From: Pseudomonas sp.
Lineage (GTDB): Bacteria; Pseudomonadota; Gammaproteobacteria; Pseudomonadales; Pseudomonadaceae
Reading direction: 5' to 3'
Assembly: GCF_037994325.1 (NCBI RefSeq)
Contig: NZ_JBBNAH010000381.1
Location: forward strand, 1 to 42,011
Length of the DNA: 42,011 nt
Part shown: positions 2,074 through 13,808 of the stretch, one piece after another
Numbering within the stretch: the stretch's first letter is position 1
Layout: each line of letters starts with the position of its first letter
Position numbers and translations under genes: made by a program
The notes under the pieces: generated by a model
The model's input: the letters and a program-made list of their open reading frames with translations, nothing else
Databases searched by the model: none
What the model was told of the DNA's origin: nothing

Positions 2074-3567
2074 TTAGTTGGGCTGGATATTGCCCTGCTG
2101 CCAGCGCGCTTCACTGTCGCCAATGGCTTTGGAGATGGCGCTGAGTTGGTTCGACGGCAGCTGGTTAGGCAGCGGGTCGAGGCCGACGCTGGCGAACAGT
2201 TGACCGTAGCTGTTGCGCAGTTCGGCGTAGGCCAGGTCGCGGCGCAGGTCGGCTTGCAGGGTGTTGAGTTCGCCCTGGATCAGGTCCAGTTCACCAATGC
2301 CTTGGGCCTTGTAGCGGTTGCGCAGTTGCCCGGCGATTTGTTCGTCGAGGTTGGCCAGTTGCTGGCTGGTCTGGAACTGACGCTTGGCTTCGTTAAAGTT
2401 GGCGTTGGCCACGTACAACTGGGCCAGCACCGCCATCGACATCGCCTGGCGCCGCGCCGCAGCCACTTGTTCACCGGCTTTGGCCACGTCGATAGCTGCT
2501 GGCGCGGACAGCACGTTAAACAGGTTCCAGGTGATCTTCACGCCATAGTCGGCCCAGCTCTGGTTGACCAGAAAGGAGTTGCTGTCGTAGTGGCCGCCAG
2601 CGGAAAACTCCAGGCCCGGTAGCAGTCGCAGCATGGCTTTGCGGGTTTCGGCGGCGCTGATGCGCGCCTGGTAATCCTGCTCGCGCAGTTCCGGGCGGCT
2701 GGCCAGGGCCTGCTGTTCCATCTGCGCCATATCCACATTCAACTGCGGTACGTCGTAGCCCTCGGGGGCGGCCAGTTTCAGGTCGGTGCCAATCGGCAGG
2801 TTGATCAGGGTAGCCAGCTCGGTTTTGGCCAGGGACAACGCCTTGCGCTGCTCTTCCAATTGGCGGGTGGCTTCGATCAGCGAGCGCTCGTAGCTCAGCG
2901 CTTGAATTGGGTCGCCGATGCGGTTCTGGCTGAGGTTCTGACTATTGCTGCGGGCTTGGTCGACACGCGCCATCAGGCTGTCGATCTGGCCCAGCAGGCG
3001 TTCGGCGGCGACGGCGCGCCAGTAGGCCGAGCGCACGTCTTGGGTGATGGTGTGGATCACCTTGCGCCGGCGTTCTTCAACGATCAGGCGCTGGTCGCCC
3101 TGCTGCTTGGCGCTGACATAGGCGACGCCAAAGTCGAGCACGTTCCACACCATGGTCAGGTCGGCGACACGGCGGTCGCGGTCTTGCGAGGTGGACGGCT
3201 CCAAAGACTGGGTTTTGGTGCGCACGCTTTCGCTGCTGGAGGCGCTGACGTTGTCGCGCCCAGCGTACCCTGCCGAGAGCGCCATACGCGGCAGCATGTC
3301 GAAGGTAGCGAGGTCGACCTGGTGCTGGGCCAAGGCTTCTTCCATCACTTTCAGGCGCGCTTCGAGGTTGTACTTCACCGCCCGGGCCATGGCGTCGTGC
3401 AAGGTCAGCGGGCCATTGAGGGGCTCCTGATCCTTGAACATGCTCACCAGGTCGCTGCTGGCGCGGGCGCGGCTTTCACTGTGGTCAATCGGTTGACTGG
3501 TCACGGCACAGCCGCTGACGGCCAGGGCAAGCAGGCTTGCACTGAAGAGTTTGTGGCTTTTATTCAT
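2074..3567 (-). CDS. TolC-family outer membrane efflux lipoprotein
   Basis: Start at ATG 3567 (MNKSHKLF). Lipobox LAVSGC; two OEP-like repeats (AVKYNLE..MLPRMAL; LASRPEL..LLPGLEF); helical coiled-coil content. Confidence 0.9.
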   Translation of the reverse strand: MNKSHKLFSASLLALAVSGCAVTSQPIDHSESRARASSDLVSMFKDQEPLNGPLTLHDAMARAVKYNLEARLKVMEEALAQHQVDLATFDMLPRMALSAGYAGRDNVSASSSESVRTKTQSLEPSTSQDRDRRVADLTMVWNVLDFGVAYVSAKQQGDQRLIVEERRRKVIHTITQDVRSAYWRAVAAERLLGQIDSLMARVDQARSNSQNLSQNRIGDPIQALSYERSLIEATRQLEEQRKALSLAKTELATLINLPIGTDLKLAAPEGYDVPQLNVDMAQMEQQALASRPELREQDYQARISAAETRKAMLRLLPGLEFSAGGHYDSNSFLVNQSWADYGVKITWNLFNVLSAPAAIDVAKAGEQVAAARRQAMSMAVLAQLYVANANFNEAKRQFQTSQQLANLDEQIAGQLRNRYKAQGIGELDLIQGELNTLQADLRRDLAYAELRNSYGQLFASVGLDPLPNQLPSNQLSAISKAIGDSEARWQQGNIQPN

Positions 3568-3626
3568 CCTTGTGCCGCCCCCTAAACGCGGCAAGTCCTA
3601 CCGGCAAATAGTCTGTTGAGTGACGC

Positions 3627-6600
3627 TTAAGCGGGCGTCGAAGTGTCGGTCAGTTGCCCAAGTGCCTGGGCGAGTTCCTGCACCTGTTGTTGTTTGTTGT
3701 GGTGTAACTGCTGCAACTGTTCCCCCAGTGTTTGCGCGCCGAAGGCGCCGCGCAGGCTGTTGCTGGCGTCAGCGCCTTTGCCGTTTTTGTCAAAGAGCTT
3801 GATGGGCGTGACGTCACCGGCGCTTTCCTTGCTGAACAAGCCGGACAGGCTGCTGCTGCCAAAGATGCCGCCATCACCGCCGCCAAAGCCCAAGAAACCT
3901 ACGCCGTTGCCATTGCCGCCGCTGTCGCTGCTGGCAAACACTTGGGCGATATAGCTGGGTGCCAGCGGGTTCTGGTTAATAAAAATATTGCCCAGGGTGG
4001 GAATGCCGCTGCCGACGCTGGGCACCTCGAACAATGGCGGCGGCAGCAGCGGCGAGGTGCTGACCGGAGGCGATACCACCGGCGGCATCGGTTGCAGCGG
4101 TGTTGCCGGTGGTGGCAGCGTGGTCACCGGTGGGTTGGCGCGGAATTCCGGGTCGCCGCTCACATCCGGCGGGGTTGGTGGCGCGGCCGGAATACCGATG
4201 GTGTAGGTCGGCCCGCTGAAACCGCCGGCGCTGGCATTGCCGGTACTGTCGGAAATGCCGGTGCCCGTTGGGTTCAGGTTTAAGCCCAGGCTACCCAGGC
4301 CGGTAATGCCATCGACCAGCACTTGGTAAGTGTGGGGGTTGATCTGCACCACCGACTGCACGTTGCCGGTCACGCCGCCGCTGGTGACCAGGCTGAAGTC
4401 GCTGGTGTCGACGCCCGTGACGTCTTCGCTAAAGGTCACGGTATAGCTGACGCTGCTGGCATTGGTGGGCGATGGTCCATCCAGCACGATGGCGCTGACA
4501 GTCGGGGCAATGGCATCCACCAGTACAGCTGCGGTACTGCCGACGTTATTGAGGGTAAGCACGCCGTTATTGCCGGCGCTGTCGCGCAGGGTGCCGCCAT
4601 TGAGATTGATACCGCTGCCCAGGCTGATGCCGTTGCTGTCCGCCTGGCCGTTGCTCAGGGTGAGGCGGAACACCAGGGCCGATGTGCCGGAGCCGGAGAC
4701 GTAGTTGGCATAGGCGGTGCCGCCGGTATCCAGAGTGACCGCCAGGCGCGGCGTGCCGCCGGTGGTGTCGACGCTGACGGCTTCCGACAGGTTGACGATA
4801 AAGTCGAGGTTTTGCCCAGCCCCATAGGTGGTCCCGGCAGGTGGCGTCACTGAGGTCACGGTAGCGGCTATGCCATCAATCACCAGATTGGTATTGGCGG
4901 CCAGGGAGTTGGCGGTTCCTGGGGTTGGCAGGGTGAGAATGGCCTGGTCACTGGTTGCCGATTGAATCGTTGCGCCATTGAGCGCCAGAGCGCTGCCGCT
5001 GGCGTAGTCCAAGTCGGCGCTGACGTCTCCGGGCAGCACCGTGTAGCTGAACGTCAGGGTGTTGCTGCCCGAGCCAGACACATAAGTGGCACTGCGGTCG
5101 ATGCTGCCGGTTTCCAACAGCAGGGTTGGCGTGCCGCCCGTGGTGTCGACGTTCACCGCCTGGTTGAAGGTCAGGGTGATGTTCACTGTCGCGCCGATGC
5201 CGTAAGTGCCACTGTTGGCGCTGACGCCAGTCACCATCGGGTTGTTAGGGTTGACGGTAATGGCCAGGGTGTCGGTATCGGTTCGACTGCCGCCGGGGCC
5301 TGTCAGGCCCAGGTCATTACTGCTGATCTGCAGACTGGCGGCGCCGTTGTAACCGGCGGTGGGGGTGAAGGTCAGGCCATTGAGGGCGATATTGATGTCG
5401 GCCAGGGTGCCTTGGAACGTCATGCTGGCATCGCCAGTGCCTGAGCCCACGATAAAACTCAGGCCGCTGGTGCCGCCCAGGGTCAGCAGGCCGTTGGTGG
5501 CGGTCAGGGTGACCTGTTCAACACCGCCGCCGCCATCGGTATCGCTGATGCTGATCAGGTTGCCGTTGCCGGTGTTAAACGTCAGGGTGCCGTCCTGCTG
5601 CAGGGCCTGGGCGCCCGGCAGGCTATTAACCGGCGCGTCGTTGACCGCGGTAACGCTGACCACTTTGCTCGCCAGGTTGCTGCTGGAGCTGCCGTCATTG
5701 ACGCTGAAACTGACCGTTCGGTTGCTGGTGTTGGGCTGCTCGCTGCTGTTGCTGTAGGTCACCGAACGCAACGCCGCCTGCCATTGGGCGAGGGTGGCGG
5801 TGGCGCCCGCAGAACTCAGGCTAAACACACCGGTGGCGCTGTTGTAGCTGCCAGTGATATTGCCCATGGTTGCCGGGTTGTTGGTAAAAGCCAGCACATC
5901 CTGGCCGCTCTGCAAGTTGCCGGTAATTGCCACGCTGGCGCTGGCCAGGGTGCTGCTGTCCAGGTCGGTGAGGGTAAAGCCGCTGTCGATCACCACCGGC
6001 GTGCTGGTGACATTGTTGCCTTCGGTAAAGGCCGTTGTGCCGCCGCTGGTACTGGCGACCGGGCTGTTATCCACCGTGTTCACCGTCACGGCCTTATTCG
6101 CGACGTTGCTGTCTTGAGTGCCATCGCTGGTGCTGAAACTGATGAGGCGAGTACTGATATTGGGCGACTGGGCGGTGTCGGTGTAGGTCACCGAGCGCAA
6201 GGCGGCCTGCCATTGCGCCAGGGTCGCCGTGGCGCCTGCGGAGGTCAGGGTCATTACCCCGGTGGCCGCGTTGTAGGAGGCGTTGATATTGCCCATGGTG
6301 GCCGGGTTGTTGGTAAAACTCAGCTCATCTTCGCCGCTTTGGAAGTTGCCGGTAATCGCCACGGTGGCACTGGCCAGGGTGTTGTTATCGGCGTCGCTCA
6401 AGGTAATGCCGCTGTCTACTACCACCGGTGTGCTGGTGACGTTATTGCCTTCGGTAAACGTGGTAACGCCGCCCGAGGTGCTGGTCACCGGGCTATCGTT
6501 GACGGCGCTGACGCTGACGTTTTTAGTGCTGGCGCTGCTGTTGGTGTTGCCGTCGTTGAGGGTAAAGCTGAGGGTGCGGGTACTGGTGCTGGGGCTTTCC

Positions 6601-9464
6601 GAGCTATTGCTGTAGGTGACCGAGCGCAGCGCCGCCTGCCATTGGGCGAGCGTGGCGGAGGCGCCCGCTGAGCTCAGCGTCATGACCCCGCTGCCGCTGT
6701 TATAGAAGCCCGCGATATTGCCCATGGTCGCCGGGTTATTGGTGAACGCCAGTACGTCTTCACTGGCGTGCAGGTTGCCGGTGATCGCCACGCTGGCGCT
6801 GGCCAGGGTCGAGTTATCGATATCAGAAACAGTAAAGCCGCTGTCGACCACCACCGGCGTACTGGCGGCGTTGTTGCCTTCGGTAAACGCGGTGGTGCCG
6901 CCCGAGTTGGTGGCGATGGGTGTGTCATTAACGGCCGCAACGGTCACTACTTTGCTCGTCACCGCGCTGTCGGCGTTGCCGTCATTGACGCTGAAACTGA
7001 TGGTGCGGTTGCTGGTATTCGGGTTTTCCGAGCTGTTGTAGTACATGATCGAACGCAGCGCCGCTTGCCATTGCGCCAGGCTGGCGGTGGCGCCTGCTGA
7101 ACTCAGGGTCAAGGTCCCGGTGCTGCCGTCATAGGCAGAGCCGATGTTGCCCATGGTCGCCGGGTTGTTGGTGAACAACAGCGAGTCTTGGCTGTTTTGC
7201 AAATTGCCGGTAATCGCCACGGTGGCGCCCGCCAGGGTGCTGTTGTCGAGGTCGCTCAGGGTCATGCCGCTGTCGATCACCACCGGCGTGCTGGTGGTGT
7301 TATTGCCTTCGGTAAACGCCGTGTTGCCGCCCGACGCCGTGGCCACCGGCGTGTCGTTGACGGCGGCTACCGTCACCTGTTTGGAGGCGGTGCTGGAGTT
7401 GCTGCCATCGTTGACGGCAAAGGCAATCACCCGGGTGCTGGTATTCGGGGTGTCGGAACTGTTGGTGTAGGTGATCGAGCGCAGTGCCGCTTGCCATTGC
7501 GCCAGCGTGGCGGTGGCGCCGACCGAGTTCAGTGCCAGGACACCGGTGCCGCTGGTGTAGAAGCCTGAGATATTGCCCATGGTCGCCGGGTTGTTGGTAA
7601 AGGCCAGCACGTCCTGGCCGCTCTGGAAGTTGCCGGTGATCGACACGTTGGCGCTCGCCAGGGTGCTGTTGTCCAGGTCAGTGACGGTAAAACCGCTGTC
7701 GACAACAACTGGCGTGCTGGTGACATTGTTGCCTTCGGTAAAGGCCGTCTGCCCACCGGAGGCGCTGGTAACCGGGGTGTCGTTCACCGCCGTGACCGAG
7801 ACGACTTTGGTGCCGGCCGTGCTGTTGGAGTTGCTGTCGTTAACGACAAAGCTGACCGTGCGGTTACTGACGTTGGGCGAGTTGGAACTGTCGGTGTACG
7901 TCACCGAGCGCAACGCCGCTTGCCATTGCGCCAAGGTGGCGGTGGCGCCAGCCGAGCTCAGGCTGAGTACGCCGGTGCCGGCGTTATAGTTACCGGAGAT
8001 ATTGCCCATGGTGGCTGGGTTGTTGGTGAATGCCAGCACATCCTGACCGCTCTGGAAGTTACCGGTAATGCTCACCGTGCCGCTGGCCAGGGTGCTGTTA
8101 TCGCTGTCGGTCAGGGTGATGCCGCTGTCGATCACCACCGGGGTACTGGTGACATTGTTGCCCTCGGTGAAGGCCGTGGTGCCGCCGCTGGTGGTGGCGA
8201 CCGGCGAGGCATTGGGCATTACCGGGTCGGCGATTTGAATAGCGTTAAGCCCGTGAAAGCTGTTGTTCGCGGTGTACAGAATCACCGAGTCCACCGCGCC
8301 AAAGGTGCTATCCAGCGCGAAGGTCTTCTGTTGGTAACCGAAGCCGTTGAAGGTGGTGAGGCCGGTGGTGCTCGCTACCTCGACTCCGTCGCGGTAGCCC
8401 TTGACCGTCACCAGGGTGTCGGCGCCCTCGCCGTAGTTCCAGTACTCGAAACCGCTGAGCTTGAATTCGGCGCCATCGGCCGAACGGATTTGCATGCCTT
8501 TCCAACCGCTGCCCAGTACTGACGCGTCGTAGGTGGTGAGGGCGTAAAAAAAGTCGCCGTTTTGTGCGTCGCCGTACACCAGCGGCAGGCCTAACGAGCT
8601 GCCCGCCGTGTTGGTCACGTTGGAAATCTGAATGGTGATGCCCGGCAGATCGCTTGAGCCGCCATTACCATCCTCGGCAATGCCATCGGCCCAATTACCG
8701 TTGTCGTTGCCATTGAACGTGATGGTGCCGTTGGCCAGCAAGCCGCTGTAGGCATCGAAGTGCAGGGCGGTGGTTTCCACGCTGCCGATTTGGCGCTCCA
8801 ATACCCAATCACCACCGCGGCTGGTAGCGCCGGTGGCATCGTCGGAGGCGGCCACGTCGGCGCCGGTTTTGGCCGCCAGTGCCTGGATAAAGTCTTGGCC
8901 TTCACCATTGGCGCCGACCGTGCAGCCGTACAGCAGAATGTCGCCATCGGCGCTCAGCGCCTTGCCAATGCTGGCCAGCGCTTCGCCATGGGCGGCCAGG
9001 TTGCTGTTATCCAGCCAGCCATTGCCTAACTGCACCTTGCCGGTGTCACCGTGGCTGATGATATGGATGGCATCGATATCGCTGCGGTCTTTGAGGTAGT
9101 CGGCGATCTGTTGCAGGCCGTCTTTATTGCTGTCCAGCACCACCACTTCGGTGCCAGGTTTGAGGCCATCGATAAGCTGTTGTTTGTCGCCTACCTGGCC
9201 ATCGATAAACACCACGTCATGGCGGTTGTCGCTGGTGGCGGCCGGTGGCGGTGTGGCGCTGGCGTGCTGGGAGCTGTCATCGGCGCTGGTGTTCTTGGCG
9301 GCGCTGTCGGCCGTGGCGTGGTCGTTGCTGTTGGCGGCGGCGTCGGCCACCGTGGCGGCGACGGCGCCGTCGAACAGCATGCGCGGTTCCAGCAAGGATG
9401 CCAGCGGCGCACGTTTGGCAGAGGTGCCCGCTCGGGCAGACCAGAACAGGTCAAAGAACTTCAC
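3627..9464 (-). CDS. Giant repetitive surface protein/adhesin: LEPRxLL motif + DUF4347 + six ~143-aa repeats + Ig/cadherin-like domains + Pro-rich linker + C-terminal tail
   Basis: Likely GTG start at 9464 behind SD GGAGG. LEPRMLFDG motif; DUF4347-like segment (VVFIDGQV..IHIISHG..DILLYGC..ADVAASDDATG..GGDWVLE); T/S/N/G/A-rich beta repeats with VND.P junctions. Confidence 0.88.
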   Translation of the reverse strand: MKFFDLFWSARAGTSAKRAPLASLLEPRMLFDGAVAATVADAAANSNDHATADSAAKNTSADDSSQHASATPPPAATSDNRHDVVFIDGQVGDKQQLIDGLKPGTEVVVLDSNKDGLQQIADYLKDRSDIDAIHIISHGDTGKVQLGNGWLDNSNLAAHGEALASIGKALSADGDILLYGCTVGANGEGQDFIQALAAKTGADVAASDDATGATSRGGDWVLERQIGSVETTALHFDAYSGLLANGTITFNGNDNGNWADGIAEDGNGGSSDLPGITIQISNVTNTAGSSLGLPLVYGDAQNGDFFYALTTYDASVLGSGWKGMQIRSADGAEFKLSGFEYWNYGEGADTLVTVKGYRDGVEVASTTGLTTFNGFGYQQKTFALDSTFGAVDSVILYTANNSFHGLNAIQIADPVMPNASPVATTSGGTTAFTEGNNVTSTPVVIDSGITLTDSDNSTLASGTVSITGNFQSGQDVLAFTNNPATMGNISGNYNAGTGVLSLSSAGATATLAQWQAALRSVTYTDSSNSPNVSNRTVSFVVNDSNSNSTAGTKVVSVTAVNDTPVTSASGGQTAFTEGNNVTSTPVVVDSGFTVTDLDNSTLASANVSITGNFQSGQDVLAFTNNPATMGNISGFYTSGTGVLALNSVGATATLAQWQAALRSITYTNSSDTPNTSTRVIAFAVNDGSNSSTASKQVTVAAVNDTPVATASGGNTAFTEGNNTTSTPVVIDSGMTLSDLDNSTLAGATVAITGNLQNSQDSLLFTNNPATMGNIGSAYDGSTGTLTLSSAGATASLAQWQAALRSIMYYNSSENPNTSNRTISFSVNDGNADSAVTSKVVTVAAVNDTPIATNSGGTTAFTEGNNAASTPVVVDSGFTVSDIDNSTLASASVAITGNLHASEDVLAFTNNPATMGNIAGFYNSGSGVMTLSSAGASATLAQWQAALRSVTYSNSSESPSTSTRTLSFTLNDGNTNSSASTKNVSVSAVNDSPVTSTSGGVTTFTEGNNVTSTPVVVDSGITLSDADNNTLASATVAITGNFQSGEDELSFTNNPATMGNINASYNAATGVMTLTSAGATATLAQWQAALRSVTYTDTAQSPNISTRLISFSTSDGTQDSNVANKAVTVNTVDNSPVASTSGGTTAFTEGNNVTSTPVVIDSGFTLTDLDSSTLASASVAITGNLQSGQDVLAFTNNPATMGNITGSYNSATGVFSLSSAGATATLAQWQAALRSVTYSNSSEQPNTSNRTVSFSVNDGSSSSNLASKVVSVTAVNDAPVNSLPGAQALQQDGTLTFNTGNGNLISISDTDGGGGVEQVTLTATNGLLTLGGTSGLSFIVGSGTGDASMTFQGTLADINIALNGLTFTPTAGYNGAASLQISSNDLGLTGPGGSRTDTDTLAITVNPNNPMVTGVSANSGTYGIGATVNITLTFNQAVNVDTTGGTPTLLLETGSIDRSATYVSGSGSNTLTFSYTVLPGDVSADLDYASGSALALNGATIQSATSDQAILTLPTPGTANSLAANTNLVIDGIAATVTSVTPPAGTTYGAGQNLDFIVNLSEAVSVDTTGGTPRLAVTLDTGGTAYANYVSGSGTSALVFRLTLSNGQADSNGISLGSGINLNGGTLRDSAGNNGVLTLNNVGSTAAVLVDAIAPTVSAIVLDGPSPTNASSVSYTVTFSEDVTGVDTSDFSLVTSGGVTGNVQSVVQINPHTYQVLVDGITGLGSLGLNLNPTGTGISDSTGNASAGGFSGPTYTIGIPAAPPTPPDVSGDPEFRANPPVTTLPPPATPLQPMPPVVSPPVSTSPLLPPPLFEVPSVGSGIPTLGNIFINQNPLAPSYIAQVFASSDSGGNGNGVGFLGFGGGDGGIFGSSSLSGLFSKESAGDVTPIKLFDKNGKGADASNSLRGAFGAQTLGEQLQQLHHNKQQQVQELAQALGQLTDTSTPA
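5635..8210 (-). repeat. Six intragenic tandem repeats of 426-429 bp
   Basis: The TEG-encoding anchor recurs at + positions 6019, 6448, 6877, 7306, 7732 and 8161 (spacings 429, 429, 429, 426, 429). Invariant TNNPATMGNI and LAQWQAALRS blocks. Confidence 0.95.
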
Positions 9465-9469
9465 AGACA

Positions 9470-9479
9470 ACCTCCATGT
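9470..9479 (-). promoter_or_regulatory. Candidate RsmA/CsrA site overlapping the SD of the giant protein
   Basis: ACATGGAGGT matches (A/U)CANGGANG(U/A), with GGA in a potential AUGGAG hexaloop. Confidence 0.5.
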
Positions 9480-9618
9480 ACATCGCGAGACAACAACTTT
9501 GTAGGAATGTTCCGAAGTAATATCCGGGATTTTATTGTAGGACACAATCCTTGAGCCTTTCGCCATGCAGACCGCCAGTCGCTTGGTTTGCCTTCAGGCA
9601 TCGAGCCTGCGGCCTGGG

Positions 9619-11715
9619 CTAGAAACCGCTCTCGCGCACACCCAGCGCCGCCAGCCTGCGCCATAGCGAACCGAGCACCGACTCGCCCTTGCCCGCAATC
9701 ACCACCATTCCACGCAGCGGCTGCGCGGGCGCGGCGAAGGTGTCGAGCAGCTGCAGACGGGCGCCGTATTGGGCTTGCAGCGGTTCGGCTTGTTGCTGTG
9801 CATTACGCCTTACCGCGATAGGGCCGTGATGGTCTGAGGCCAGCGCTTCCAGTTGCAGGTAGGCCACGCCATTGGCGTCCACTTCCTCCAGACGCACATG
9901 GGGCGCGGCGCGGGCCGGGTCGTCGGCCACAAAGCGGCCCTCGGCGCCTGGGGCCACGCGCCAGAGTTGGTCTTCGGGCAGATAACCCCGCAGTTGCAGG
10001 CCGGGGGCGATGATCCGCACCAGTACATCGCGCGGGGCCAACCAACGCCCCGGCAGCAGGTTGGGCATGAGCTCGCGGACAATACCGGCCTGGGGGGCGC
10101 GCACTTGCAACCGTTGGCGCTGTGCAGCCAAGCCGCGGTACTCGGCCACCGCCTCGGCCAGTTGCTGTTCGAGTACACCGATATCGGCGATGGTTTCGCT
10201 GCGCCCGGCCTGGCGCTTGAGTTGCAGCTGCAGAATGTCGATTTGGCTGCGCACAATGGCCTGGCGCGAATCCAGGTCCGGCGCTTCCAACTCCAGCAGC
10301 ACATCGCCCGGTTTAACCGCCTGGCCATCCACCACCTGCACGCTTTTCAAGCGCGCCGGCAGCGGCGCATACAGGGCGGTGTTACCGGCGGCTTCCAGTT
10401 GCGCGGGAATTTCCACCGTCGTGCGCCAGGGCAGCAGCAGAAGCAAGGCCAGCGCCAGCAGCGTGACGCCGAGCAGCAAGGCTTTACCGGGGTGAGCGCG
10501 CTCGCGTTGTTGCCACCACACCTGGGCTTCCTTGAGCACCGGCAGGACGATAAACCAGAGCAATTCCACCAGCATCAGGAAGATGCCCAGTACCTTGAAA
10601 AACATGTGGTACACCGCCAGGGCGATGCCGAAAAACAGCACCGCGCGCCACAGCCAGGAACCGTAACCCCACCACAGCAGGCGCCGTTGCAGGGTCGGCG
10701 ACCAAGGCTCCGGCGCCGGCTCGCCATAGCCGAACAGCGCCTCACGCAGGCGCCAGCGGCACAGGGCAAAGGCGCGACCTTGAAGGTTATCCACACCCCA
10801 CAAGTCGCTGAGCAAAAAATAACCATCAAAGCGCATAAACGGATTGAGGTTGACCGCCAAGGTGGTCAGCCAGGTGGCGCTGGCCAGCATAAAGGCCGCG
10901 CTACGCGCCGGGCCGTCGGGCAAGAGTGACCAGGCCAGCAGCGCCAGGCAGGCTAGCAGCAACTCGGCCATAACCCCGCCGGCGCCAATCAGCAACCGCG
11001 AGCGGCGTTCATTCACCCGCCAGGCGTCGCTGACGTCGGTGTAGAACATCGGCAGCATCACCATAAAGGCCACGCCCATGCTCTGCACCCGGCAACCGGC
11101 ACGCTTGGCCATATAGGCATGGCCGAATTCGTGGCACAGCTTGGCGAAGGTCAGCGCCACGGCAAAGGCGACGGCACCGCCCAGGCTAAACAGGTGTGGA
11201 AAGGTGGCGATAAAACGCTCCCAGTCGCGCGCCACCAACAAGCCGCCGAGCAGCAAGATCAGCGGCATGCCAATGCGCAGCAGGTTGGGGCCGAAGCGTT
11301 GCAGCAGGGGCCAGGTGCGGTTGAGAAAGGCGTCCGGGCGCCACAGCGGAATGCGGAAAAACAGGTATTGGTGCAGCAACGTTTGCCACAGCCCGTGTTT
11401 ACCCTGCTGGGCCTTGGCGGCGTAACTGGCGCGTTGTTCGTTATCCACCGCGCTGATCAAGTCGTGACCACGGAGAAAACGCAGCAGCTCTTCGATGTCG
11501 TCCTCGGCCAGCGGTACGCCGGGCTCACGGTTGGCCGCCTGCAATACGTGCTCAGCGTGGCCCAAGCCCCAATGGCGCAACAGGCGCATGGCCGCGCCGC
11601 CGAGTTTGAAGTAGCGCCCGCGTAAGGGGTCGGCCAGGGTCCATTGCGGCGAGCCATCCAGCGCGGCAGCCGCCGGCGAGACCTGCAAATCGGCGCGCAG
11701 CCCGGGCAGTTGCAT
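9619..11715 (-). CDS. M50 (site-2 protease family) membrane metallopeptidase fused to a C-terminal HlyD/MFP (biotin-lipoyl-like) region
   Basis: HEFGH (11119-11133) and NLNPFMRFDG (10822-10851); many TM segments; C-terminal VQVVDGQAVKPGDVLLELE..coiled coil..VRAPQAGIV MFP signature. Confidence 0.88.
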   Translation of the reverse strand: MQLPGLRADLQVSPAAAALDGSPQWTLADPLRGRYFKLGGAAMRLLRHWGLGHAEHVLQAANREPGVPLAEDDIEELLRFLRGHDLISAVDNEQRASYAAKAQQGKHGLWQTLLHQYLFFRIPLWRPDAFLNRTWPLLQRFGPNLLRIGMPLILLLGGLLVARDWERFIATFPHLFSLGGAVAFAVALTFAKLCHEFGHAYMAKRAGCRVQSMGVAFMVMLPMFYTDVSDAWRVNERRSRLLIGAGGVMAELLLACLALLAWSLLPDGPARSAAFMLASATWLTTLAVNLNPFMRFDGYFLLSDLWGVDNLQGRAFALCRWRLREALFGYGEPAPEPWSPTLQRRLLWWGYGSWLWRAVLFFGIALAVYHMFFKVLGIFLMLVELLWFIVLPVLKEAQVWWQQRERAHPGKALLLGVTLLALALLLLLPWRTTVEIPAQLEAAGNTALYAPLPARLKSVQVVDGQAVKPGDVLLELEAPDLDSRQAIVRSQIDILQLQLKRQAGRSETIADIGVLEQQLAEAVAEYRGLAAQRQRLQVRAPQAGIVRELMPNLLPGRWLAPRDVLVRIIAPGLQLRGYLPEDQLWRVAPGAEGRFVADDPARAAPHVRLEEVDANGVAYLQLEALASDHHGPIAVRRNAQQQAEPLQAQYGARLQLLDTFAAPAQPLRGMVVIAGKGESVLGSLWRRLAALGVRESGF

Positions 11716-13035
11716 CTACAAGCCCACCGTCTGACGCAACGCCGCCAAGGGCCGGCGCAATAGATAAAGTGCCAGCGGTGCACGCTCGCCATACAGCTTG
11801 GCGGTGCCGCGCAGGCCAATACGTGGCGGGCTTTCGTTAAAGCTGGCATCCAGGCGATAGGCCAGTTGGCCAGTGGCGGTCTGCTCGGCTTCGTAGGCGC
11901 TGCGTTGCAGATGGGCGATATGCCGGTGCAGGGGATCGCTGTCGAGGAACAGGCTGATTTCGCTGCCGGGGGCAAAGGCCAAGGCGTCGCCCACGGCCAG
12001 TTCGATGCGCAGCTCGGCCTGGTTGGGGTCGGCAATTTCCATCAGCCGCTCGCCGGTTTGTACCGGTTTGCCGGTCCAGCGCTGGGCGTCGGCGAACACG
12101 GCAATGCCATCGCGCTCAGCGCGCACTTCGGTGCGGGCCAGCAGTTGTTTGGCGTAGTCACGCTCGGCGCGTTTTTGCTCAACGCGGGCGGCAAACAGGT
12201 CGATGCGCGCGCTGGAGTCAGCGTCGGCAAAGGCCCGTTGTGCATTGGCTTTCAACTCTGCCTCGGCCACATTCAGGCTGCGCTCGGCTACATCGGCCTG
12301 GGCCTTGATGCTGGTGGCATCAAAGCGCACCAGCACCTCGCCGGCTTTTACCCCTTGGTTGGGTTTGACCAGAAACTCGGCAATCACCCCATCCACCGGC
12401 GCGGCCACCACTTGGCCGCCCAAGGGCACCACCTCGGCCGGCGCCAGCACCGACTGACGAATCGGCACCAGCAGCACCAGCAGGGCCGCCGCAGCCACCG
12501 CGAGAATTTTCTTTTTCGGCCAGCGCAAGCGCCACGGCTTACCCGGTTGCAGCGCACGCCAGGCATGGCTGTAACAGTCGGCAAGCTGCACCAGCAGGGT
12601 TTGCTCGGCCTCGCTCCAGGGCAGCTCGCGGGCAATCCACAAGCCGCCAAAGGGTTGCTGCTGGCGATCTAAAAGTGGCAACCACACCACCTCGGCGGCG
12701 GACAAGCTTTGCCAATCCGCCTGGCTTTGCCCGTCCAGGCTGGCCACGGGCACCACGCCGGGTAGCTGCGACCGGCCCTGGCGCAACAACTGCGCAGCGG
12801 CATGTTCGACAAAGGCGACAAAGGGCGCGTTAGGCTCAACCACGCTGACGCCGGTCAGGGCGCGCACCTTGCCGGCAATCAGCAGCGCAGCATGGCGAAA
12901 ACCAAACAGCCCCTGGCCGTCATTGACCAGCGCATAGGCCAAGTGGTCGATGTCTTTGGCCGCGCGGGCCTGGCGTTCCAGCAGCAAAAACTGCGCGATC
13001 AGCCGCTCGGCCAGGCCCGGTTGCGAGGCCGTCAT
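11716..13035 (-). CDS. HlyD-family periplasmic adaptor with N-terminal cytoplasmic GAF-like domain
   Basis: ~170-aa N-terminal domain (VVWLPLLD..FGGLWIARELPWSEAE), one TM (KKKILAVAAAALLVLLVPI), then VVAAPVDGVIAEFLVKPNQGVKAGEVL MFP motif. Confidence 0.85.
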   Translation of the reverse strand: MTASQPGLAERLIAQFLLLERQARAAKDIDHLAYALVNDGQGLFGFRHAALLIAGKVRALTGVSVVEPNAPFVAFVEHAAAQLLRQGRSQLPGVVPVASLDGQSQADWQSLSAAEVVWLPLLDRQQQPFGGLWIARELPWSEAEQTLLVQLADCYSHAWRALQPGKPWRLRWPKKKILAVAAAALLVLLVPIRQSVLAPAEVVPLGGQVVAAPVDGVIAEFLVKPNQGVKAGEVLVRFDATSIKAQADVAERSLNVAEAELKANAQRAFADADSSARIDLFAARVEQKRAERDYAKQLLARTEVRAERDGIAVFADAQRWTGKPVQTGERLMEIADPNQAELRIELAVGDALAFAPGSEISLFLDSDPLHRHIAHLQRSAYEAEQTATGQLAYRLDASFNESPPRIGLRGTAKLYGERAPLALYLLRRPLAALRQTVGL

Positions 13036-13808
13036 GGCGACTCCGCAAACTGCGCGCTGCCGCTCATGCCGGCGAGCAAACCGCTGGCATCGGCGGGCAG
13101 GGTGCCGATCAGCAGCAGGGTCTGGCTGCCTTCATCAATGCGCGCGCCCAGGCGTTTTACCGTGACTTGCAAGGGCGTGCCGGTTTCATCGGCGGTGAAC
13201 TGAAAATGGCTGCCGGTCTTAAGCCAGCCCAGCCAACTGGAGGGCACTAGCAGGTGCACTTCCAAGGTACGGTTATCGACAATTTCCAGCAGCGGCGTGC
13301 CACCACTGACACTCTCAAACGGCTGCACCTTGCGTTGCACCACCCGCCCACTAAAGGGCGCCACCACCGTGCAGCGGCGCGTCTGCACCTGATACACCTT
13401 GGCCTCGGCCTGGGATTGGGCCAGTTTTGCCTCAGCCTGAGCCACTTCAAAACGCCCCACGGAATTCAGCGCGGCCAATTGGTTGTTGTGCTTGAGCTGT
13501 TCATTGGCCGCGCGCACTGCCGCCTGGGCGGCTTCTTGCTGGGCCTGGTAGGCACTGCAATCGAAGCGCACCAGCACGTCGTCTTTTTTGAAGTCTTGGC
13601 CCTCGGCAAAGGGCATCTCGGTGATGCGCCCTGCCAGCTCGCTGGAGAGAGTCGCCTGATCACGCGCCCGCAGCACGCCACGGGCGACGCGCGGGGCGCT
13701 GGTGTTGGCGGCGGGGGAGTCCAGCAGAGGGTCGTCGTCGGCGTGGGCAAACGCAGGCGGCAGCAGAAATAGGGCCGAGGCGGCTATCCATAAAGCGGCG
13801 GTGTGCAA
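13032..13808 (-). CDS. Efflux/secretion periplasmic adaptor subunit (MFP) with Sec signal peptide
   Basis: Likely TTG start at 13808 behind SD AAGGAG. Signal ends in AHA; LSSELAGRI..EGQDFKKDDVLVRFDC and CTVVAPFSGRV motifs. Stop overlaps the next ATG (ATGA). Confidence 0.85.
   Translation of the reverse strand: MHTAALWIAASALFLLPPAFAHADDDPLLDSPAANTSAPRVARGVLRARDQATLSSELAGRITEMPFAEGQDFKKDDVLVRFDCSAYQAQQEAAQAAVRAANEQLKHNNQLAALNSVGRFEVAQAEAKLAQSQAEAKVYQVQTRRCTVVAPFSGRVVQRKVQPFESVSGGTPLLEIVDNRTLEVHLLVPSSWLGWLKTGSHFQFTADETGTPLQVTVKRLGARIDEGSQTLLLIGTLPADASGLLAGMSGSAQFAESP

Follow-up and report, generated by a model that had tools for sequence, protein, structure and literature searches.

The 42,011 bp window analyzed here, a stretch of Pseudomonas sp. 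DNA (assembly GCF_037994325.1, contig NZ_JBBNAH010000381.1), carries a five-gene cassette that probably encodes a dedicated exporter independent of ATP-binding cassette (ABC) transporters, in which an intramembrane protease would bind and cut the leader of a giant cargo protein. Based on sequence comparison and structure models, we place the probability of this reading at roughly 0.6. The genes encode a small membrane fusion protein (MFP), a GAF-MFP, a peptidase M50-MFP fusion, the giant protein and a TolC-family channel. To our knowledge, all known TolC-dependent exporters use an ABC, resistance-nodulation-division (RND) or major facilitator superfamily pump. An earlier description made without database searches (the sequence-only reading) had called the five genes co-oriented and the first three coupled; all five open reading frames (ORFs) indeed lie on the minus strand, and both junctions were read in the sequence, an ATGA overlap at 13032–13035 and TAG abutting ATG at 11716/11715. 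Pfam matched HlyD_3 in the three MFPs, Peptidase_M50 (3e-8), DUF4347 (5e-57) and OEP. The reported lack of ABC and RND genes in cassette and window also held, with 0 among 26 ORFs scanned with Pfam and NCBIfam, as did that of Walker motifs, since the six Walker-A-like matches of a six-frame scan all fell outside the frames of real genes. Measured against canonical type I secretion, MFP and TolC-family channel were present while the cognate ABC was absent from cassette and window.

The 698-aa M50-MFP was modeled from 100 sequences with a pLDDT of 89.6. Three strands and three helices came first, the membrane domain after them was helical and had extra helices, and the predicted MFP came last. 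The N-terminal topology is that of the PqqD/RRE fold (RiPP recognition element; RiPP, ribosomally synthesized, post-translationally modified peptide), and residues 1–95 matched PqqD clusters with scores of 0.92–0.93; Foldseek with the full model returned MFP chains only, and the RRE-like assignment draws on fold topology and these cluster matches. Inside the membrane domain, both motifs of site-2 proteases, HExxH and NxxPxxxxDG, were found at the sequence level, and H195, E196, H199, N289, P292 and D297 were invariant in 100/100 aligned M50 sequences. The best NCBIfam match was the daptide RRE-peptidase (NF041824, E 1e-44, 152.9 bits, cut-off 300), and a Pfam scan of the window recovered no daptide gene context. 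Because an RRE-like domain is combined with intact zinc motifs, the M50-MFP resembles a leader peptidase more than a passive ABC substitute. The sequence-only reading, which had it replace the ABC, was supported as to a self-contained unit lacking an ABC and less so as to what the protein would do. The RRE-like domain and the zinc motifs had escaped it, as had the predicted caspase-type fold of DUF4347 and the probable separation of the SecA-less form as a clade. Elsewhere, two M50-MFP genes were apparently split by a frame change (G009:C26:40698-42793; G319:C1:2956106-2958195).

The presumed cargo has an isoelectric point of about 4, a single Cys in 1,945 aa and no RTX nonapeptide. It had been described as a LEPRxLL/DUF4347 protein; DUF4347 was confirmed, and the leader turned out to be a variant, LEPRMLFDG, to which the 24-position LEPR-XLL model (NF012209) gave no match, nor did it match the controls. 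The L, E and R of the leader were invariant in 53/53 aligned cargos. DUF4347 modeled well, as a compact domain behind a flexible linker, and its predicted caspase-type fold held the His-Gly and Gly/Ala-Cys pair of clan CD, making it a putative protease. Tce1 gave the best structural match (Z 12.8); CHAT, clostripain, legumain and caspases came next at modest scores (Z 8.9 and below), interspersed with unrelated folds. The His was kept in 49/53 and the Cys in 52/53 aligned cargos, and this Cys was the sole cysteine after the leader in 35/47 complete cargos. Glu or Asp takes the place of the His in 4/53 (L065 and L077 among them), with the Cys mostly retained. Across 24 close cargos, conservation was confined to DUF4347 (24/24, itself one of the criteria for choosing them) and the tail (22/24); the domain behind DUF4347 was present in 1/24 and resembles a variable tip. 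A Pro-rich linker with 9–21 Pro per 80 aa preceded the tail in 24/24. The tail carries a helix with the motif [FL]xxQ[LVMFI] (QL motif), found in 26/33 held-out tails, a set with near-duplicates and two shadow ORFs, vs 11% of shuffles. It also occurred in 31/49 distant tails, in a set that includes non-cargo proteins, with a pattern defined after the first tails had been viewed; the counts independent of that definition are the 26/33 and the clade comparison below. A second tail type, in which a hydrophobic stretch replaces the QL helix, was seen in L040, L073 and L078, with a P-x-W-x-x-F-D-P motif following it in L040 and L073.

Two deep clades of M50-MFP, of which the SecA-less clade A appears to have cargo signals of its own, are the new element of this analysis. 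In a quick tree, midpoint-rooted and with Shimodaira-Hasegawa-like approximate likelihood ratio test (SH-aLRT) values but no bootstrap, 83 M50 domains split 55 vs 28 (SH-aLRT 100). Twenty loci were fetched for each score class: those of clade B had an adjacent SecA2 in 19/20 and TolC in 0/20, whereas those of clade A had SecA in 0/20 and TolC in 14/20. The window's M50-MFP groups with clade A, and clade B matches the module of Kamneva et al. 2015 (PMC4452313). The seventh residue after the leader L was D in 93/93 clade-A matches, many of them closely related, and in 0/13 of clade B (12 S, 1 A), and leader type tracked the M50 clade even in genomes holding both (e.g., G150, G121). The QL motif occurred in 8/12 clade-A vs 1/17 clade-B tails, with kin not independent, and the GAF-MFP was about 450 aa long in clade A vs about 615 aa in clade B. 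In the extra membrane helices, clade A conserves K374 (95%) and E384 (93%), clade B neither; their candidacy as a general replacement for SecA2 was weakened by four SecA2-less clade-B loci that also lack them. Such clade-B-type machines without an adjacent SecA2 (L248, L249, L268, L039, and L040; four with a DUF4347 cargo) may represent independent losses of the motor.

The proposed survey of co-occurrence bore out the association of machine and cargo. M50-MFP was found in 41/72 genomes of the genus and the cargo N-terminus in the identical 41, lists that were matched by eye and whose agreement is partly accounted for by gene adjacency. Among 80 GTDB loci, GAF-MFP was present in 77, MFP in 66, a cargo-like ORF in 61 and TolC in 46, with SecA in none and LapB in one; many of these loci end at 10 kb or a contig edge, and both this set and one of 80 metagenome loci were selected with clade-A patterns. 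The latter contained one full-length SecA and one type-I-like ABC. The giant protein is thus likely to be the cargo, as had been suggested; the clade-specific cargo signals had gone unnoticed. The cargo N-terminus profile matched 18,024 protein clusters, mostly via DUF4347. Homologs of M50-MFP from both clades occurred in 66/251 sampled Pseudomonadota genomes and also in loci of Nitrospira and SAR11 type and on plasmids, yet the family has no pump of the known kinds. Of 53 matching plasmid records, two were inspected and hold the same five genes with no ATPase among them.

In the preferred mechanism, the RRE domain would bind the LE-x-R leader on the cytoplasmic side and the zinc site would cut it off, by analogy with what is said of the site-2 peptidase, itself fused to an RRE, in daptide clusters. 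The transmembrane (TM) helices of M50-MFP and GAF-MFP would then lead into a mixed tunnel of three MFPs reaching TolC, through which the cargo would pass, slightly more probably N-terminus first. The acidic repeats, as they fold outside, could pull the chain through, possibly with help from translation or proton motive force. In the end, the cargo would be retained at its dedicated TolC as a surface adhesin through its Pro-rich linker and QL helix, and DUF4347 would process the cargo itself while being dispensable for export. SecA passes its substrates N-terminus first, which suits the SecA2 of clade B; the SecA of this sister clade, the variable domain behind DUF4347 and the Pro-rich spacer before the tail together favor N-first passage and a C-terminal anchor.

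Export in the opposite direction, a variant of the same exporter whose own, rather low probability forms part of that of the preferred reading, is nearly as likely as N-first passage. The QL helix would go first as a type-I-like signal while the leader tethers the N-terminus until the M50 cut, with DUF4347 acting as a periplasmic plug and built-in release protease, like the LapA retention module and LapG. The frequency of the motif in the held-out tails, an acidic and nearly Cys-free cargo and the compactness of DUF4347 behind its linker are all consistent with this direction. Against it stand the linker before the tail, which resembles a spacer for an anchor, several cargos that carry the leader but no DUF4347, and the absence of the QL motif from most of clade B.

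Less likely again, the cassette could borrow an unlinked motor, for which housekeeping SecA and ABCs (e.g., LapB or an MsbA-like exporter) are the candidates. The window's genome (93% complete) does contain four type I ABCs, every one of which, however, sits beside its own HlyD. In a survey that scored only 23 candidates per genome, 12/36 genomes passed the LssB cut-off. No type I ABC or HlyD was recognized in G091, a 1.9-Mb genome (99% complete) with the full cassette and a cargo of 3,269 aa, where four ABC exporters scored best as MsbA, MsbA-like, CydD and PglK, or in G122 (one chromosome, six ABC exporters). Together with the pairing of the window's own ABCs, such genomes speak against dependence on an unlinked ABC, the outcome that the sequence-only reading had named as fatal to its proposal. 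The single type I ABC in each set of 80 GTDB and 80 metagenome loci points the same way, for ABCs and not for the housekeeping SecA. With regard to the latter, the sister clade has a SecA paralog of its own, and one of the metagenome loci has a full-length housekeeping-type secA immediately after a clade-A M50-MFP gene (L181:13127-15853). A secondary SecA_DEAD protein, already noted by the sequence-only reading as lacking at the locus, was absent from the window's genome as well, which gave one SecA_DEAD match only and whose M50 falls in the separate clade; a single match was likewise found in 43/49 cassette genomes and in 13/13 of the genus.

Improbable is a regulatory M50 that cuts the GAF-MFP or another membrane protein for assembly or signaling, with the leader merely bound. 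Site-2 proteases usually cleave single-pass proteins, the GAF-TM-MFP topology is of that kind, and the GAF-MFP and M50-MFP genes abut; the fusion of an RRE-like domain to the protease and the invariant L, E and R of the leader fit this poorly. Export of small peptides, tail-collar proteins or glycan, with the giant protein leaving by another way, is very improbable, because the extra genes between M50-MFP and cargo in 17/20 close loci that speak for it are absent from the window, L001, L011 and L018, and cargo and machine share one distribution.

Several points weigh against an ABC-independent leader-cutting exporter. The daptide peptidase match (153 bits) falls short of the cut-off of 300, and the single-pass GAF-MFP looks like a typical site-2 protease substrate. 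Some type I ABC is present in most cassette genomes, and the borrowed ABC stays alive in closed genomes of the genus because lapB lies 2–12 kb upstream of the cassette in 7/9 of them. The unclassified exporter of G091 had HlyB as its second-best match (344 of 725 bits), and the negatives for G091 and G122 cover type I ABC and HlyD, not MacB-type or RND pumps. The QL helix resembles a C-terminal type I signal and is absent in 4/12 clade-A tails. Because all clade contrasts amount to one split in the tree, common descent alone could explain them. The energy source for export is a further difficulty, as K374 and E384 mark clade A but are also lacking in four SecA2-less clade-B loci, and open-licence PMC and bioRxiv literature yielded no experiment on any family member.

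The computationally noted M50/HlyD loci of which the sequence-only reading spoke, some with SecA_DEAD, are on record. The core is described in silico by Kamneva, Poudel and Ward 2015 (PMC4452313), who propose the M50 protein as the pore of a SecA2-linked module without a functional test; the idea of M50 as the inner-membrane pore was therefore not new (section 17). That module and the window share homologous M50-MFP, GAF-MFP and small MFP and the lack of an ABC, while the window differs in having no SecA2 in locus or genome, a shorter, single GAF part (about 450 vs 615 aa), a linked TolC, a D-type leader and a QL tail. Cargo, leader and RRE are unnamed in the text sections consulted of that paper, and its M50 tree (S8 Fig) may include clade A. 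As the sequence-only reading had stated, no worked-out mechanism emerged: open-licence PMC and bioRxiv literature gave no description or functional test of clade A, and the text portions of PMC13723633, PMC7716237 and PMC12322963 held nothing on export. Giant-adhesin type I secretion (LapA-LapBCE, HlyB-HlyD-TolC) likewise combines MFP and TolC with an acidic, Cys-poor repeat cargo and a dedicated channel gene. Unlike those systems, the window lacks an ABC and has three MFPs, an intramembrane protease and a conserved N-terminal leader; as to a C-terminal signal, its cargo has a conserved helix there, a candidate signal or anchor, and no RTX nonapeptide. MpaP of daptide clusters (10.1101/2023.03.08.531785) resembles the M50-MFP in an RRE N-terminal to a site-2 protease and in a precursor leader motif (ELExMEAP), and differs in lacking the MFP fusion and TolC and in acting on short peptides; it is stated to remove the leader, the leader-RRE tests in the text consulted being shown for MpaB, not MpaP. 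Tce1 (PA0256, PDB 9qpe; PMC13323088, PMC8262886), called a putative cysteine protease with activity not shown in those text sections, shares the DUF4347 fold and His/Cys pair and is a small type VI secretion system cargo, whereas the window's domain heads a repeat protein of 1,945 aa. The giant LEPRxLL proteins Cag_663/665 of Chlorobium chlorochromatii were shown leaving the cell (10.64898/2026.03.19.712371); they have a similar N-terminus and a TolC neighbor, and their authors propose SapC/TolC/HlyD export, with 0 occurrences of M50 in the text portion available. Neither the definition of type I secretion nor that of the 2015 module fits the window's putative exporter, which would seem to work most like a peptidase-containing exporter.

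More tentatively, clade A may be an unrecognized ATPase-less system that combines RiPP-type leader recognition, an intramembrane cut and a three-adaptor tunnel for self-processing adhesins of 100–600 kDa. Translation, folding or proton motive force would power it, a role that would fall to a SecA paralog in the sister clade. If cargo export is true, it would fill a gap among the routes by which some of the largest bacterial proteins leave the cell, and raise the question of what powers it. The window holds the minimal five-gene version and is therefore suited to heterologous testing; the two clades offer a natural swap system (leader, tail, SecA2), with H195/E196, K374, E384 and the DUF4347 Cys as candidate residues.

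Table 1. Features of the cassette, in window coordinates.
Feature	Position	Strand	Basis or remarks
Small MFP, 258 aa	13032..13808	-	HlyD_3 1e-18; TIGR01730 over cut-off
GAF-MFP, 439 aa, with one TM between a single cytoplasmic GAF-like domain and a periplasmic MFP	11716..13035	-	Pfam, alignment, feature search
GAF-like domain of GAF-MFP	12541-13035	-	feature search
TM of GAF-MFP	12451-12507	-	
RRE-M50-MFP fusion, 698 aa, predicted inner-membrane component	9619..11715	-	Pfam, NCBIfam, structure model
PqqD/RRE-like peptide-binding domain (predicted)	11452..11715	-	model pLDDT about 90; PqqD clusters 0.92-0.93
Site-2 protease zinc motifs	10822..11133	-	HEFGH 11119-11133; NLNPFMRFDG 10822-10851
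Extra TM helices with clade-A-specific K374, E384	10435..10698	-	model, alignment
Giant cargo, 1,945 aa, GTG start	3627..9464	-	sequence, Shine-Dalgarno-like site
Leader motif LEPRMLFDGA	9363..9392	-	L, E, R invariant; extended, low-confidence in model
DUF4347, caspase/legumain (clan CD) fold	8757..9215	-	His in 9045-9059, Cys in 8919-8933
Six 143-aa repeats, likely stalk	5631..8201	-	up to about 4200, domains of cadherin-like and Ig-like type follow
Pro-rich linker, then conserved tail bearing the QL helix	3630..4196	-	QL motif 3705-3728
TolC-family channel, lipoprotein-like signal LAVSG-C	2074..3567	-	OEP 5e-40; ATG 3567 start

Likely starts were TTG 13808, GTG 9464 and ATG 3567, each preceded by a Shine-Dalgarno-like sequence (AAGGAG before the TTG of the small MFP). 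Hydrophobic residues 3–21 of the small MFP form a signal-peptide-like N-terminal stretch. The GAF assignment of the second MFP stood in part, with GAF matched in 16/81 homologs and a feature-search score of 0.93, while the window copy is under the Pfam detection level. The 143-aa repeats had no Pfam or PDB sequence match. A promoter scan returned 0 sites, and terminator matches were no better than chance. The genome has one cassette copy and one DUF4347. Three long contigs of an independent run span the cassette at about 88–93% identity, and the order MFP-GAF-M50-cargo recurs in 20/20 close loci (TolC in 18/20, the other two ending at the locus edge), which rules out chance or misassembly. Recent foreign origin was also ruled out, with a cassette GC content at third codon positions of 0.75–0.81 vs 0.75–0.78 in neighbors.

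The extra genes of the 17 close loci (L002-L010, L012-L017, L019, L020) occupy 1–4 kb, and those scanned encode GNAT, tail-collar (PF07484), DUF6916, PMT_2 glycosyltransferase and sulfotransferase proteins, suggesting that the cargo is often sulfated or glycosylated. After TolC, close loci have an APS kinase or Asp/Asn hydroxylase gene. Two candidate motors there were rejected: Walker-A proteins of relatives were identified as APS kinases, and a convergent ABC (L001, L002, L011) lies on the opposite strand and is not in the window, the sole one classified, in L001, being MsbA-like. In the window, a TauE/SafE gene (890–1867, same strand) is next after TolC, where relatives have sulfur-activation genes. 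The region 13916–42011 holds the housekeeping neighbors selO, mscK, a cation antiporter, msrA, aceEF, glnE, ilvE and waaF/waaC-like genes; selO is upstream of the cassette in L018 too.

In G059, ~110 kb separate a cargo of 3,870 aa from a second machine (C1:1962422-1963120; 2074475-2076544), which hints at a machine acting in trans. The plasmid matches include 18 Escherichia and 8 Citrobacter records, and on an IncF plasmid (L313, NZ_CP081693.1) a clade-A-like cassette of five genes, whose cargo has 4,459 aa, adjoins IS1. In a 1.9-Mb genome, TolC is fused to cadherin/Ig-like domains (932 aa; L038:16989-19787).

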